A stretch of 64,000 nucleotides of DNA from Escherichia coli. Lineage in GTDB: Bacteria; Pseudomonadota; Gammaproteobacteria; Enterobacterales; Enterobacteriaceae. The notes beneath the pieces are model-generated. The model did not search any database. It was given only the letters and a program-made list of their open reading frames with translations, and was not told the DNA's origin. The translations under genes were made by a program, and so were the position numbers. Of the stretch, positions 21,994 to 61,987 are shown in pieces. The stretch is from assembly GCF_044324785.1 (NCBI RefSeq), contig NZ_CP172127.1; one strand, 5' to 3'. Within the stretch, counting starts at the first letter, position 1. Each line of letters starts with the position of its first letter.

Positions 21994-24276
21994 ATGTCCG
22001 AGCTTAATGAAAAGTTAGCCACAGCCTGGGAAGGTTTTACCAAAGGTGACTGGCAGAATGAAGTAAACGTCCGTGACTTCATTCAGAAAAACTACACTCC
22101 GTACGAGGGTGACGAGTCCTTCCTGGCTGGCGCTACTGAAGCGACCACCACCCTGTGGGACAAAGTAATGGAAGGCGTTAAACTGGAAAACCGCACTCAC
22201 GCGCCAGTTGACTTTGACACCGCTGTTGCTTCCACCATCACCTCTCACGACGCTGGCTACATCAACAAAGCGTTGGAAAAAGTTGTTGGTCTGCAGACTG
22301 AAGCTCCGCTGAAACGTGCTCTTATCCCGTTCGGTGGTATCAAAATGATCGAAGGTTCCTGCAAAGCGTACAACCGCGAACTGGACCCGATGATCAAAAA
22401 AATCTTCACTGAATACCGTAAAACTCACAACCAGGGCGTGTTCGACGTTTACACTCCGGACATCCTGCGTTGCCGTAAATCCGGTGTTCTGACCGGTCTG
22501 CCAGATGCTTATGGCCGTGGTCGTATCATCGGTGACTACCGTCGCGTTGCGCTGTACGGTATCGACTACCTGATGAAAGACAAACTTGCACAGTTCACCT
22601 CTCTGCAGGCTGATCTGGAAAACGGCGTAAACCTGGAACAGACTATCCGTCTGCGCGAAGAAATCGCTGAACAGCACCGCGCTCTGGGTCAGATGAAAGA
22701 AATGGCTGCGAAATACGGCTACGACATCTCTGGTCCGGCTACCAACGCTCAGGAAGCTATCCAGTGGACTTACTTCGGCTACCTGGCTGCTGTTAAGTCT
22801 CAGAACGGTGCTGCAATGTCCTTCGGTCGTACCTCCACCTTCCTGGATGTGTACATCGAACGTGACCTGAAAGCTGGCAAGATCACCGAACAAGAAGCGC
22901 AGGAAATGGTTGACCACCTGGTCATGAAACTGCGTATGGTTCGCTTCCTGCGTACTCCGGAATACGATGAACTGTTCTCTGGCGACCCGATCTGGGCAAC
23001 CGAATCTATCGGTGGTATGGGCCTCGACGGTCGTACCCTGGTTACCAAAAACAGCTTCCGTTTCCTGAACACCCTGTACACCATGGGTCCGTCTCCGGAA
23101 CCGAACATGACCATTCTGTGGTCTGAAAAACTGCCGCTGAACTTCAAGAAATTCGCCGCTAAAGTGTCCATCGACACCTCTTCTCTGCAGTATGAGAACG
23201 ATGACCTGATGCGTCCGGACTTCAACAACGATGACTACGCTATCGCTTGCTGCGTAAGCCCGATGATCGTTGGTAAACAAATGCAGTTCTTCGGTGCGCG
23301 TGCAAACCTGGCGAAAACCATGCTGTACGCAATCAACGGTGGCGTTGACGAAAAACTGAAAATGCAGGTTGGTCCGAAGTCTGAACCGATCAAAGGCGAT
23401 CTCCTGAACTACGATGAAGTGATGGAGCGCATGGATCACTTCATGGACTGGCTGGCTAAACAGTACATCACTGCACTGAACATCATCCACTACATGCACG
23501 ACAAGTACAGCTACGAAGCCTCTCTGATGGCGCTGCACGACCGTGACGTTATCCGCACCATGGCGTGTGGTATCGCTGGTCTGTCCGTTGCTGCTGACTC
23601 CCTGTCTGCAATCAAATATGCGAAAGTTAAACCGATTCGTGACGAAGACGGTCTGGCTATCGACTTCGAAATCGAAGGCGAATACCCGCAGTTTGGTAAC
23701 AACGATCCGCGTGTAGATGACCTGGCTGTTGACCTGGTAGAACGTTTCATGAAGAAAATTCAGAAACTGCACACCTACCGTGACGCAATCCCGACTCAGT
23801 CTGTTCTGACCATCACTTCTAACGTTGTGTATGGTAAGAAAACTGGTAACACCCCAGACGGTCGTCGTGCTGGCGCGCCGTTCGGACCGGGTGCTAACCC
23901 GATGCACGGTCGTGACCAGAAAGGTGCTGTAGCGTCTCTGACTTCCGTTGCTAAACTGCCGTTTGCTTACGCTAAAGATGGTATCTCCTACACCTTCTCT
24001 ATCGTTCCGAACGCACTGGGTAAAGACGACGAAGTTCGTAAGACCAACCTGGCAGGTCTGATGGATGGTTACTTCCACCACGAAGCATCCATCGAAGGTG
24101 GTCAGCACCTGAACGTTAACGTGATGAACCGTGAAATGCTGCTCGACGCGATGGAAAACCCGGAAAAATATCCGCAGCTGACCATCCGTGTATCTGGCTA
24201 CGCAGTACGTTTCAACTCGCTGACTAAAGAACAGCAGCAGGACGTTATTACTCGTACCTTCACTCAATCTATGTAA
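21994..24276 (+). CDS. pflB: Pyruvate formate-lyase
   Basis: 760 aa, [39 protein letters not shown]...; glycyl-radical motif RVSGYAV near the C-terminus. Confidence 0.98.
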
Positions 24277-52130: not shown

Positions 52131-55100
52131 TTAGTCAAACGGCGGTGGGGCCAGCACTTCACGATTACCGTTGTGCCCCTGTTCGCTGACAATCCCCTGC
52201 GCTTCCATCTGTTCGATAATACGCGCTGCACGGTTATAACCAATGCGGAACTGACGCTGTACGCCAGAAATTGATGCTTTGCGTTTTTCAGTGACAAACT
52301 GCACCGCCTGATCGAACAACGGATCCAGTTCTTCAGCGCCATCGAAACCGCCCGCGCCACCTTCGCTTTCACTGTCGGAGGTGATGCCATCAACATACTG
52401 TGGGCGACCACGCGCTTTCCAGTCCTGCACCACGGCATGAACTTCCTGATCGCGAACAAAAGCACCATGAACACGTACCGGCAACGTGGAGTTCGGCCCA
52501 GAGTAAAGCATATCCCCCATACCCAGCAGTGATTCCGCGCCAGCCTGATCAAGAATGGTACGTGAGTCAATCTTACTGGATACGGTAAAGGCGATACGGG
52601 TCGGAATATTCGCTTTAATCAGACCAGTAATAACATCAACCGATGGACGCTGCGTTGCCAGTACGAGGTGGATACCCGCGGCACGGGCTTTTTGCGCCAG
52701 ACGTGCTATCAGCTCTTCCACTTTTTTACCTACCGTCATCATCAGGTCGGCAAATTCGTCCACCAACACCACAATGTACGGTTCTTTTTTCAGCACCGGA
52801 TGCTGGGCATCCATACTGTCACCCGGCTTCCAGTACGGGTCTGGAATCGGACGCATCATCCTATCGGCTTCAGCAATTTTTTCGTTATAACCCGCCAGAT
52901 TACGCACACCCAGCGCAGACATCAGTTTATAACGACGCTCCATCTCGTTAACACACCAGCGCAGCGCGTTGGCGGCATCTTTCATATCAGTAACGACTTC
53001 CGTTAACAGATGCGGGATGCCTTCATAAACCGAAAGCTCCAGCATTTTCGGGTCGATCATGATGAAACGCACATCTTCTGGCTGTGCTTTATAAAGCATG
53101 CTCAGGATCATCGCGTTCACACCGACAGACTTACCGGAACCGGTAGTCCCCGCAACCAACAAGTGCGGCATTTTCGCCAGATCGGCAACCACCGGCTCAC
53201 CGGCGATATCTTTACCCAGCACCACGGTTAATGGCGACGGATTATCGCGGAATTTGGCGTTATCCAAAACTTCGCGCAGATATACGGTTTGTCGTTTTTT
53301 ATTCGGTAACTCCAGACCTACATAGGGTTTGCCAGGAATAACTTCAACGACACGCACCGCCACCGTCGAAAGTGAACGGGCAAGGTCCCGTGACAAGTTA
53401 GAAATGCGCGCCGCTTTTACGCCCGGTGCCAGGTTCAATTCAAAGCGAGTGATAACCGGCCCCGGAGAATAATTGACGACATCGGCTTTAATACGGAAAT
53501 CAGCCAGACGCGCTTCCACCAGACGCGCCATTTGTTCAAGCGCAAAGGTATCTACCGGCTCCACTTCGCTCGGCGGAGGTGTCAGCAAATCCAGAGAAGG
53601 CAGCGGCGTCGTCGGTTTATGCAACGGACGGCTGTCGCCATTACGCATCAACAGCGGATGAAGCAGGGTATCCTGCGGCTGTGGCGCAACTGGCTGTTGT
53701 GGCTGCTGATACTGCGGCTGCGGTGCAACCGGTTGTTGTGGCTGCTGATACTGCGGCTGCGGCGCAACCGGTTGTTGTGGCTGCTGATACTGCGGCTGCG
53801 GTGCAACCGGTTGTTGCGGCTGCTGATATTGTGGCTGCGGCGCAACCTGCTGTTGTGGCTGCTGATACTGCGGCTGCGGCGCAACCGGCTGTTGCGGCTG
53901 CTGATATTGCTGCTGTGGCGCAACCGGCTGTTGTGGCTGCTGATACTGCTGCTGCGGTGCAACCGGTTGTTGCGGCTGCTGTACAGGTTCAACAATTGGC
54001 GTAAACAACGGTTCGTGTGGACCATCATCCAGCAACGCTTTCATTGGCGAAAATTCAAAATCATCCAGCGAGAACGGATTCGCCCCAGCCGGTTGTTCGC
54101 CGGAATAACGTTGTTGTTGAGTTTGCGCAAACTGACGAGCCAGTTCAGCCTCTGCCGCAGCATCTGCATCTTCTGCGTTTACGGGCACATCATGTTGATA
54201 CTGTTCGCCATAGCGTTGCTGCTGTGTCTGGGCGAACTGACGTGCCAGTTCATCCTGCTGCATCGCATCGATTTCATCATCGTTGTACTGATCGCCAGAA
54301 TCGTACTGATTGCGCTGGGCTTCACGGGCTTTTTCTTCCGCCGCACGCTGTGAGGGCAGCTTAATACCGTAAGACGCCAATTCACGACGAGTTGGCACGC
54401 GGATACGTTTCGGTCGTGGCAACTGCGGGCCAATCCCCTCTTTGACCTGCGGACGCGGTCCAGCGCTATTTGCCAGACTGAAGACTGGCGCGGCAACGGT
54501 TGCGGCAGCCCCCGTCGCCAGTGTCGCTTTTTTCACGCCAGATGCCAAAGGGGAAACAGCGGCAGCGGCTTCCACTGGAGGTACTGCTGCAACAGAAGGT
54601 GCTTTCAGCGAAGATTTGATCGGTTCTGGTTCTTTAACCGGTTCAGGAATCGGTTGATACCAGGCTGCAAGTTGTTCACGTTCACGGGCTCGCTTCTCTT
54701 CCACTTCTTCAAAGTAGTAAAGCGGCGGACGCGCGGGTTTTGTCTCTTCTACAACGGGTTCAGGCTCCACAACAGGCTGCTGTTCAACAGGTTGCGGCTG
54801 TTGGTACAACGGCTCCTGAGCGACTGGCTGCTGATAAGTTTGCTCAGTCTGGTATGTAGACTGTGGAGCAAAAGTGGATTGCTGCTCTTCGGCTTGCCAG
54901 GCGTTACCTGCCACCGATTGTTCTGGCGCAGGGGCGTAATACGGCTGTTGCGCAGACTGTTCCGCCGCAGTTGCATAATACGGCTGCTGAACAGGTTGTT
55001 CCGCCGCAGGCGCATAATACGGCTGCTGTGGCTGTACAGGTTGTTGCAGCGGCTCATTATATTGCACTGCAGGCTGCGCATATTGTGGCTGCTGTGGGTA

Positions 55101-56237
55101 ACCTTCCGGTGCAGGAGCAATCACCGGCTCTCCCGTTTGTGGCCCCGGTACAGGCTGCCAGGCTACTGTAGGTTGTGCAGGTGCAACATCAACAGAGGCA
55201 ACAGATGGCGTCTGAGTCACAGGTTCAACCGGTGCAGCCCAGCTTTGCGTCGCCGTGGTAGCAGCAGCTGCTACAGCAACAGGTTCGGTAATTGGCGCAC
55301 CGTTTAATAATGGATCGTACTCGTCATATTCTGGCTGCGTTGCACGATTGCCCGAAAAGAGGACGTCGTCAGGGTCGGCAGCCACACCGCGTGCAGTGTA
55401 GGTAATCTCTTCGTCATCATCCATCCGCTTACCGGAGAACAACGCAGCGTCTGTTTGCCGCCCCATCGGATTAATGAATTTTTCCGCCAACCGTTTACGA
55501 CGCGCTAGCGCGCCGCGAAGAATACGAGCACGGCGTGATTCATGCTGTTTGCCGTGATTTTCATCTTCATACTCTTCGTCATCTTCATACTCATCTTCAT
55601 CGACCCAGGTATCATCGCGACGGGTACGATTACTGGCGAAGGTGAGAATGTTTAAAATCCAGCCGCCGAGTTTTTCAGCAATGGTCACCCATGACCAACC
55701 GGTGAACAGCGTCAGACCCGCAGCCCAAACGCAGAGCAGCGCAATAGTTCCCCCGCTACTGTGTAGCAGTGGTTGTAGCGTAGTGCTTAGTAAGCTGCCA
55801 ATGACGCCACCGGAGGCAAAATACCAGATATCGTCAGCGTTGATTGCCGCCAGACCACAGGAGGTAAGGATGAGCGCCAAAACGCCAATGATGCGTAGCG
55901 AAACGGCAAAATAATCAATGTATTCGTCGCTGGACTGATGACGCCAGGCAAACCAACAACCGCCGACAATAATGACGGGAATGGTGTAAGCCATCACGCC
56001 AAAAATAAAGAACAGCGTATCTGCCAGCCATGCACCGGGCATCCCACCTAAATTATGGATAGGTTCATGCCAGGCCGTTTGCGACCAGCTGGGGTCCGAA
56101 GGGTTAAAGCTTAGTAAGGCAGCCATCAACCAGACGGCAAACAGGACAATAAGGATCAGCAACGCCTCCAGAAGGCGGCGGCCGCTACTTAACTTTGTCA
56201 ATGTGACTTCTTTGTCTTCAGTGTATTCCTGGCTCAA
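52131..56237 (-). CDS. ftsK: DNA translocase FtsK
   Basis: 1368 aa; N-terminal TM domain, long Pro/Gln-rich linker, C-terminal motor with Walker A GTTGSGKS. Confidence 0.97.
53680..53990 (-). repeat. In-frame 39-bp tandem repeat array (about 8 copies) encoding ([13 protein letters not shown])n in the FtsK linker
   Basis: Near-identical 39-mers such as CTGCGGCTGCGGTGCAACCGGTTGTTGTGGCTGCTGATA repeated head-to-tail. Confidence 0.9.
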
Positions 56238-56315
56238 GAAAGGCTCTCCAGGTTACAGGCTTTTCCTGCCCGATGCTAAAACGGACAACAGTACCAGGTT
56301 ACCCCAGTACTGTTG

Positions 56316-56331
56316 CTGTATGGATTAACAG
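56316..56331. promoter_or_regulatory. LexA (SOS) box CTGTATGGATTAACAG upstream of ftsK
   Basis: Exact CTGT-N8-ACAG palindrome about 80-95 bp upstream of the ftsK start codon. Confidence 0.7.
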
Positions 56332-56371
56332 GAGTGTAATCAAAATACGCCGATTTTGCACCTGTTCCGTG

Positions 56372-56866
56372 TTAGCGCGTCTTAATAACCAGACGATTAC
56401 TCTGCTTGACTTCTTCCATAACAACGTATGTCCGTGTGTCATTGACGCCAGGCAGACGCAGCAGGGTTTCCCCCAGCAACTTACGGTAAGCTGACATATC
56501 CGGCACGCGTGTTTTCAACAGGTAGTCGAAATCACCGGATACTAAATGACACTCCTGAATTTCTTCAAGTTTTTGTACAGCGGTATTGAATTGTTCAAAC
56601 ACATCCGGTGCGCCACGATTCAGAGTAATCTCAACGAATACCAGAAGTGATGCATCCAGATAATGAGGGTTCAGCAGCGCCGTATAGCCCTGAATAAACC
56701 CTTGTCTTTCCAGCCGACGCACACGCTCAAGGCACGGCGTTGGGGAAAGTCCCACACGTTTAGAAAGCTCGACGTTAGAAATACGCCCATCCTTTTGCAA
56801 CTCATTAAGAATGTTACGATCGATACGGTCGAGATCTTTGCCAGGGCGCTTCTTGCTATCTACCAT
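56372..56866 (-). CDS. lrp: Leucine-responsive regulatory protein
   Basis: MVDSKKRPGKDLDRIDRNILNELQKDGRISNVELSKRVGLSPTPCLERVRRLERQG... Confidence 0.98.
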   Translation of the reverse strand: MVDSKKRPGKDLDRIDRNILNELQKDGRISNVELSKRVGLSPTPCLERVRRLERQGFIQGYTALLNPHYLDASLLVFVEITLNRGAPDVFEQFNTAVQKLEEIQECHLVSGDFDYLLKTRVPDMSAYRKLLGETLLRLPGVNDTRTYVVMEEVKQSNRLVIKTR

Positions 56867-60265: not shown

Positions 60266-61987
60266 ATGCGCGCTTTGCTACCCTATCTGGCACTGTATAA
60301 ACGTCATAAATGGATGTTAAGTCTTGGTATTGTGCTAGCAATTGTCACGCTGCTCGCCAGTATCGGTCTGTTGACACTTTCCGGCTGGTTCCTCTCCGCC
60401 TCAGCGGTAGCGGGGGTTGCCGGACTGTACAGCTTCAACTATATGCTACCCGCTGCGGGCGTGCGTGGCGCAGCAATCATCCGTACTGCCGGGCGCTATT
60501 TTGAACGTCTGGTAAGTCACGACGCGACTTTCCGCGTGTTGCAGCATCTGCGCATTTACACCTTCAGCAAATTGCTGCCCCTCTCCCCTGCCGGACTGGC
60601 GCGCTATCGTCAGGGCGAATTGCTCAACCGCGTGGTGGCGGATGTTGATACGCTCGATCATCTTTACCTGCGCGTTATCTCGCCGCTGGTGGGCGCTTTT
60701 GTGGTGATTATGGTGGTGACAATCGGGTTAAGTTTCCTTGATTTCACCCTCGCCTTTACGCTGGGCGGCATTATGTTACTGACGCTTTTCCTGATGCCAC
60801 CACTGTTTTATCGTGCGGGAAAAAGCACCGGGCAAAATCTGACTCATCTTCGCGGGCAGTATCGCCAACAACTGACGGCCTGGCTGCAAGGGCAAGCTGA
60901 GCTGACCATTTTTGGTGCCAGCGATCGTTATCGCGCGCAGTTAGAGAATACCGAAATTCAGTGGCTGGAAGCGCAACGTCGTCAATCTGAACTCACCGCA
61001 TTGTCGCAAGCGATAATGCTGCTCATTGGCGCGTTAGCGGTGATCCTGATGCTGTGGATGGCGTCTGGCGGCGTTGGCGGCAATGCTCAACCCGGCGCGT
61101 TAATTGCCCTGTTTGTCTTCTGCGCGTTAGCCGCGTTTGAAGCACTGGCACCAGTAACGGGTGCATTTCAGCATCTGGGGCAAGTCATTGCCTCTGCCGT
61201 ACGGATCACTGACTTAACGGATCAAAAACCGGAGGTCACCTTCCCTGATACCCAAACTCGTGTTGTCGATCGCGTTTCGCTGACGTTACGGGATGTTCAG
61301 TTCACTTATCCGGAGCAATCCCAACAGGCACTTAAAGGGATTTCTCTTCAGGTAAACGCCGGAGAACATATAGCGATTCTCGGGCGAACCGGATGCGGCA
61401 AATCAACACTGTTACAACTGCTGACCCGCGCATGGGACCCGCAACAGGGCGAGATTTTGCTTAACGATAGCCCCATAGCCAGCCTGAATGAAGCGACTCT
61501 ACGACAGACCATCAGCGTTGTGCCACAGCGAGTGCATCTGTTTAGCGCCACGCTGCGTGATAATCTGTTACTCGCCTCGCCTGGCAGTAGTGATGAGGCT
61601 CTGGCGGAGATCTTACGTCGCGTTGGTCTGGAGAAGCTGCTCGAGGATGCAGGTCTCAACAGTTGGTTAGGTGAAGGCGGACGCCAGCTCTCCGGTGGTG
61701 AACTACGCCGTCTGGCTATCGCCCGTGCGCTGTTACATAATGCGCCGCTGGTATTGCTGGATGAACCTACAGAAGGCTTAGATGCCACAACCGAAAGTCA
61801 GATCCTTGAATTGCTTGCAGAAATGATGCATGAGAAAACGGTGTTAATGGTCACCCATCGACTTCGCGGACTCTCTCGTTTCCAACAAATAATAGTGATG
61901 GACAACGGGCAAATTATTGAGCAAGGTACTCACGCAGAACTGCTTACCAGACAGGGGCGTTATTACCAGTTTAAGCAGGGTTTGTAA
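60266..61987 (+). CDS. cydC: Cysteine/glutathione ABC exporter CydC
   Basis: 573 aa; Walker A GRTGCGKST, signature LSGGELRR; start abuts the cydD stop. Confidence 0.95.
   Translation: MRALLPYLALYKRHKWMLSLGIVLAIVTLLASIGLLTLSGWFLSASAVAGVAGLYSFNYMLPAAGVRGAAIIRTAGRYFERLVSHDATFRVLQHLRIYTFSKLLPLSPAGLARYRQGELLNRVVADVDTLDHLYLRVISPLVGAFVVIMVVTIGLSFLDFTLAFTLGGIMLLTLFLMPPLFYRAGKSTGQNLTHLRGQYRQQLTAWLQGQAELTIFGASDRYRAQLENTEIQWLEAQRRQSELTALSQAIMLLIGALAVILMLWMASGGVGGNAQPGALIALFVFCALAAFEALAPVTGAFQHLGQVIASAVRITDLTDQKPEVTFPDTQTRVVDRVSLTLRDVQFTYPEQSQQALKGISLQVNAGEHIAILGRTGCGKSTLLQLLTRAWDPQQGEILLNDSPIASLNEATLRQTISVVPQRVHLFSATLRDNLLLASPGSSDEALAEILRRVGLEKLLEDAGLNSWLGEGGRQLSGGELRRLAIARALLHNAPLVLLDEPTEGLDATTESQILELLAEMMHEKTVLMVTHRLRGLSRFQQIIVMDNGQIIEQGTHAELLTRQGRYYQFKQGL

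Follow-up and report, generated by a model that had tools for sequence, protein, structure and literature searches.

The element at 56316..56331 of the window, the whole 64-kb stretch of Escherichia coli DNA that was analysed, is almost certainly the operator through which LexA controls P2 (dinH), the SOS-inducible promoter of ftsK. The published ftsK 25-mer ACTCCTGTTAATCCATACAGCAACA (PMC3009722 Table 4) is the reverse complement of window positions 56311..56335, so that the original prediction of a LexA box consistent with the reported SOS-inducible ftsK promoter turned out to be an exact match to the ftsK/dinH box. Besides this sequence identity, the assignment draws directly on a matrix score, the position relative to mapped transcription starts, and conservation (Table 1). 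The operator was already known and adds nothing new for E. coli. PMC4080785 and PMC6590174 trace it to Lewis et al. 1992, Dorazi & Dewar 2000 and Fernandez de Henestrosa et al. 2000, and PMC6590174 counts ftsK among the LexA-regulated genes for which an SOS box is known. Two ftsK promoters are described in PMC4080785 after Wang & Lutkenhaus 1998 and Dorazi & Dewar 2000: a dispensable one inside lrp and a second, essential one that is dinH, the SOS promoter.

Table 1 Features of the lrp-ftsK region in window coordinates; positions with a sign are relative to the P2 start.
Feature	Position	Strand	Remarks
lrp coding sequence	56372..56866	minus	
Upstream start inside the lrp reading frame	56531	minus	U00096.2 932153, Cappable-seq
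Conserved block AGGTGCAAAA	56354..56363	minus	Phylogenetic footprint
Putative -10 hexamer TACACT of P2	56333..56338	minus	-12..-7; last T 7 nt upstream of the Cappable-seq start
20-nt SOS box, TCCTGTTAATCCATACAGCA on the gene strand	56314..56333	minus	-7 to +13
LexA box core CTGTATGGATTAACAG, gene strand CTGTTAATCCATACAG	56316..56331	minus	-5 to +11
ftsK P2 transcription start, A	56326	minus	MG1655 933135 (NC_000913.3), 932358 (U00096.2); 89 nt upstream of TTG
Covarying RNA hairpin, 13-bp stem, GUAA loop	56286..56315	minus	+12..+41, in the ftsK P2 leader
Shine-Dalgarno GGAG (56246..56249) and conserved ftsK TTG start codon (56235..56237)	56235..56249	minus	
ftsK coding sequence, TTG start, 1368 aa	52131..56237	minus	

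The box had been placed in the short lrp-ftsK intergenic region, which is correct, with the amendment that both genes lie on the minus strand. This 134-bp gap is base-for-base that of K-12 MG1655, and a 334-bp query around the site was found at ≥99% identity in 5425 of 5426 complete E. coli genomes. The box thus shares its sequence, its position between lrp and ftsK and its gene context with the K-12 ftsK P2/dinH box, and the regulatory region shows no difference from the K-12 locus, whereas FtsK itself is longer (1368 aa, compared with 1329 aa in K-12 MG1655 and 1342 aa in O157:H7 PV15-279). The ftsK linker contains a 39-bp tandem repeat at 53673..53981 (7.9 copies, 90% matches), which also occurs at 54919..55028 and encodes 13-aa proline/glutamine-rich units. 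Since the 39-aa excess over K-12 equals three such units, the linker repeat number seems to differ among strains.

Within the window, CTGT-N8-ACAG occurs only once, at the box. By chance, 0.58 matches to the bare pattern should occur in 64 kb, and it appeared at least once in 46 of 100 shuffles, so that taken alone it is not significant and lies within chance. More specific information came from a symmetric LexA matrix derived from the validated E. coli boxes of PMC3009722 Table 4, 17 in number once ftsK was left out. With this leave-one-out matrix the ftsK 20-mer scored 16.0 bits, the top score of the window; 0.073 sites scoring like it are expected per 64 kb under a first-order Markov model, or about 1.5e-4 when scaled to the 134-bp gap. 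A LexA matrix scan had been proposed as a check on the original prediction, and the score falls inside the range of validated sites rather than being low. The site therefore has both the CTGT-N8-ACAG dyad with a 16-bp core and the overall similarity to validated boxes by which SOS boxes are recognized.

In strength the box is mid-to-weak. It ranked 14th of 18 validated boxes in the leave-one-out comparison, outscoring uvrD, dinG, dinB and polB and falling far below sulA, recN and umuD. Its published heterology index (HI) is 9.2 (PMC11228462 Table 1), our own HI-like calculation gave 10.3, and the functional-range rule of HI<15 (PMC11002266) places the box below the limit. In the 20-mer, 14 positions agree with the consensus TACTGTATATATATACAGTA and the inner 8 bases are not palindromic; the description of the box as 'perfect' consequently applies to the four-base CTGT and ACAG arms and not to the rest. 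The second and third matrix scores of the window, 14.4 bits at 23446..23465 and 14.2 bits at 61755..61774, fall inside a 760-aa (21994..24276) and a 573-aa (60266..61987) open reading frame, respectively, and both were set aside as probably chance or non-regulatory matches.

To relate the box to mapped promoters, we used the plus-strand starts reported by Cappable-seq at 932153 and 932358 in U00096.2 (PMC4782308 supplement). SMRT-Cappable-seq gives starts for lrp at 932327 and for ftsK (b0890) at 933134, each 1 below the converted Cappable-seq value, which we read as 0-based numbering. Conversion from U00096.2 to NC_000913.3 was made with an offset of 777, supported by the strong Cappable-seq start at 931551, 267 nt upstream of the U00096.2 lrp start codon; we take that codon to be at 931818 and 267 nt to be the published start-to-codon distance. 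In NC_000913.3 lrp begins at 932595, which equals 931818 + 777.

The box adjoins TACACT and overlaps the mapped P2 start, which places it in the core promoter; in this comparison with mapped ftsK promoters its location thus proved compatible with promoter function. TACACT, almost invariant among 31 aligned Enterobacterales, is the likely -10 element of P2. Within the upstream block AGGTGCAAAA, likewise almost invariant, GTGCAA (56356..56361) forms a weak -35-like hexamer that matches TTGACA at 3 of 6 positions with a 17-bp spacer, and we infer that it serves as the P2 -35. A sigma-70 consensus promoter scan of the gene strand did not report P2, because its -35 matches at only 3 of 6 positions and the thresholds were too strict. 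An alternative promoter, TTGATT-17-TACAGC, with its -10 inside the box, was rejected: TTGATT is conserved in close relatives only, TACAGC lacks the T at -7, and the mapped start fits TACACT. The upstream start inside lrp is consistent with the dispensable ftsK P1 and presumably corresponds to it.

Conservation was assessed in 120 gammaproteobacterial loci, retrieved by searching for the Lrp C-terminus as a degenerate DNA pattern; most of these loci carry ftsK downstream of lrp. Sites scoring ≥11 bits were counted as boxes, and counts cover the species with a usable lrp-ftsK spacer. In the Enterobacterales, 49 of 52 species have such a box 36-50 nt past the lrp stop codon (median 16.0 bits, maximum 20.8 bits), compared with 1 of 49 species outside this order (Vibrionales, Alteromonadales, Aeromonadales and others; median 0.5 bits) and with a background in the same loci of at most 0.017 sites ≥11 bits per 130 nt. 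In Pasteurellaceae, which stand outside these 49 species, the estimated ftsK start lies no further downstream than the lrp stop, so that no usable spacer exists and there is no room for a box. The box is therefore conserved at the orthologous promoter as an Enterobacterales-wide feature; Vibrio, Shewanella, Aeromonas and Pasteurellaceae lack it, although in most of them lrp is still followed by ftsK. The Enterobacterales alignment bears the LexA signature: CCTGT and ATACAG, the two arms, do not vary, and between them lie 7-8 bases that drift yet stay A/T-rich. Many genera score 19-21 bits, and the boxes of Yersinia, Serratia, Photorhabdus and Edwardsiella are nearer the consensus than that of E. 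coli. Further downstream, GGAG and the TTG start are conserved as well.

Immediately downstream of the box lies a hairpin whose stem has strong support from covariation. Its folding z-score is -3.2, and in an alignment of 36 Enterobacterales sequences each of the 10 consensus pairs has undergone compensatory change, with 98.6% of cells paired; none of the shuffles matched the observed pairing or covariation score, and alignments in slid registers were only 35-60% paired. Its G-U pairs are numerous, which points to a structure formed by the sense-strand RNA. A Term-seq 3' end at MG1655 933176, classed as not Rho-dependent (PMC7815308 supplement), corresponds to window position 56285, the first base past the stem, and the hairpin is apparently the intrinsic terminator of lrp. 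The U tract that follows is weak (UCCGUUUUAGC), and a consensus terminator scan does not call the hairpin, since the G-T extension of the stem moves the window in which T residues are counted. An Rfam scan of the intergenic region assigned no family and returned one sub-threshold match (E = 0.53).

LexA-dependent repression and induction at ftsK are taken from published work, and direct in-vitro binding from secondary citation. In Reg-Seq, ftsK/LexA served as an experimentally validated gold-standard, high-evidence site and was correctly recovered as a repressor site (PMC7567609); in a later Reg-Seq study the LexA footprint at ftsK was present in glucose medium and gone with hydrogen peroxide (PMC12133099). 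ftsK is among the UV-induced genes (PMC3009722). AZT induced it 1.5-fold, and its expression after AZT was 1.7-fold lexA-dependent, being significantly lower in lexA3 (PMC11228462). Under ciprofloxacin its log2 fold change reached up to 0.94 and then fell, and the multi-omics signal for FtsK protein showed no clear rise (PMC11002266). SOS induction of ftsK is thus modest, about 1.5 to 2-fold.

These data suggest a simple scheme. A LexA dimer would occupy the box, with the core covering -5 to +11 and the 20-mer -7 to +13, directly abutting TACACT, and bound LexA would hinder RNA polymerase at P2 by simple repression; we infer steric occlusion as the mode from this geometry. Upon DNA damage, RecA-stimulated self-cleavage of LexA would free P2 and raise ftsK transcription by the observed 1.5 to 2-fold. 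Repression would be partial, owing to the intermediate-to-low affinity of the box and the need for P2 in normal growth, and a leaky operator of this kind would raise expression a little during the SOS response instead of switching ftsK on and off.

Two other explanations were weighed against this assignment. The box could be a chance CTGT-N8-ACAG match without a regulatory role, with the damage induction of ftsK being indirect. The 0.58 matches to the minimal pattern expected per window, the mid-to-weak score and an induction of about 1.5-fold would all suit such a coincidence, but it would have to recur at the same position in 49 of 52 Enterobacterales with fixed arms and a free centre, and it is at odds with a repressor footprint that is lost on peroxide and with lexA3-dependent expression. 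We regard it as most improbable.

Very unlikely, too, is the idea that LexA binding is incidental and that the sequence is conserved mainly for a different role, be it as the binding site of some other regulator, as the base of the lrp hairpin, or as the discriminator or initial transcribed region of P2. It draws on the observation that TACACT and the flanking C residues, which are not part of the LexA consensus, are conserved as strongly as the arms, and that the covarying hairpin begins with the final two bases of the 20-mer. Yet the hairpin covaries freely and hence puts no constraint on primary sequence, and within the box conservation falls precisely on CTGT and ATACAG, the arms contacted by LexA, around a drifting, A/T-rich centre. 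That many genera, at 19-21 bits, come nearer to the consensus than E. coli also speaks against an incidental resemblance.

Taken as a LexA operator, the ftsK box shares with those of sulA, umuDC, recN, dinD and sbmC the CTGT-N8-ACAG architecture and the overlap with core promoter elements. These canonical boxes are much stronger (20-27.6 bits, published HI 2-5.4, 6 to 56-fold induction) than that of ftsK (16.0 bits, HI 9.2, about 1.5-fold induction), and, unlike them, ftsK P2 is reportedly essential even in cells without DNA damage (PMC4080785). The annotation is correct and useful, describes an ordinary regulatory element, and ties FtsK, with its roles in chromosome-dimer resolution and septum-associated DNA translocation, to the SOS response.

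The arrangement of P2 and the hairpin has a further consequence. As P2 starts downstream of the lrp stop codon but ahead of the apparent lrp terminator, its transcripts must read through the hairpin. Full-length ftsK reads from 933134 in SMRT-Cappable-seq indicate that some transcripts do pass it, and because these reads begin upstream of the hairpin, termination can be at most partial. With P2 only 11 nt upstream of the hairpin, read-through might act as a second control point of ftsK dosage, or termination might release a ~42-nt SOS-inducible leader RNA; we consider this rather doubtful. Attenuation at the hairpin, if true, might explain the small induction of ftsK despite a functional LexA box, and the promoter-before-terminator layout gives a modest, testable clue to what keeps ftsK dosage low.

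The three Enterobacterales exceptions comprise two reduced symbiont genomes and Moellerella. The box is lost in Pantoea sp. Nvir, a stink-bug symbiont (-0.2 bits), and degraded in an Arsenophonus endosymbiont (8.7 bits, with a GTATAG arm), while free-living relatives of both keep it; judged from these sequences, the decay would fit a loss of SOS control. Moellerella wisconsensis has an AT-rich lrp-ftsK spacer of ~920 nt, compared with the usual ~120 nt. There the ancestral lrp-proximal box is broken by an indel (CCTGTGTAATGCACTGCAG) and the hairpin is kept, and another LexA-like site, TACTGTGTTTTTAAACATAT (13 bits), lies 336 nt upstream of ftsK. The only LexA-like site in a spacer outside the Enterobacterales, TACTGGCAATAAAAACAGGG in Bowmanella yangjiangensis (13.6 bits, 59 nt past the lrp stop), could be an independent gain or chance. 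Finally, a short extra hairpin, GCAGG-AAAAG-CCTGT, is located on the minus strand at 56262..56278, between the apparent terminator and the ribosome-binding site; E. coli, E. albertii, Citrobacter and Enterobacter asburiae have it, and most other genera do not.
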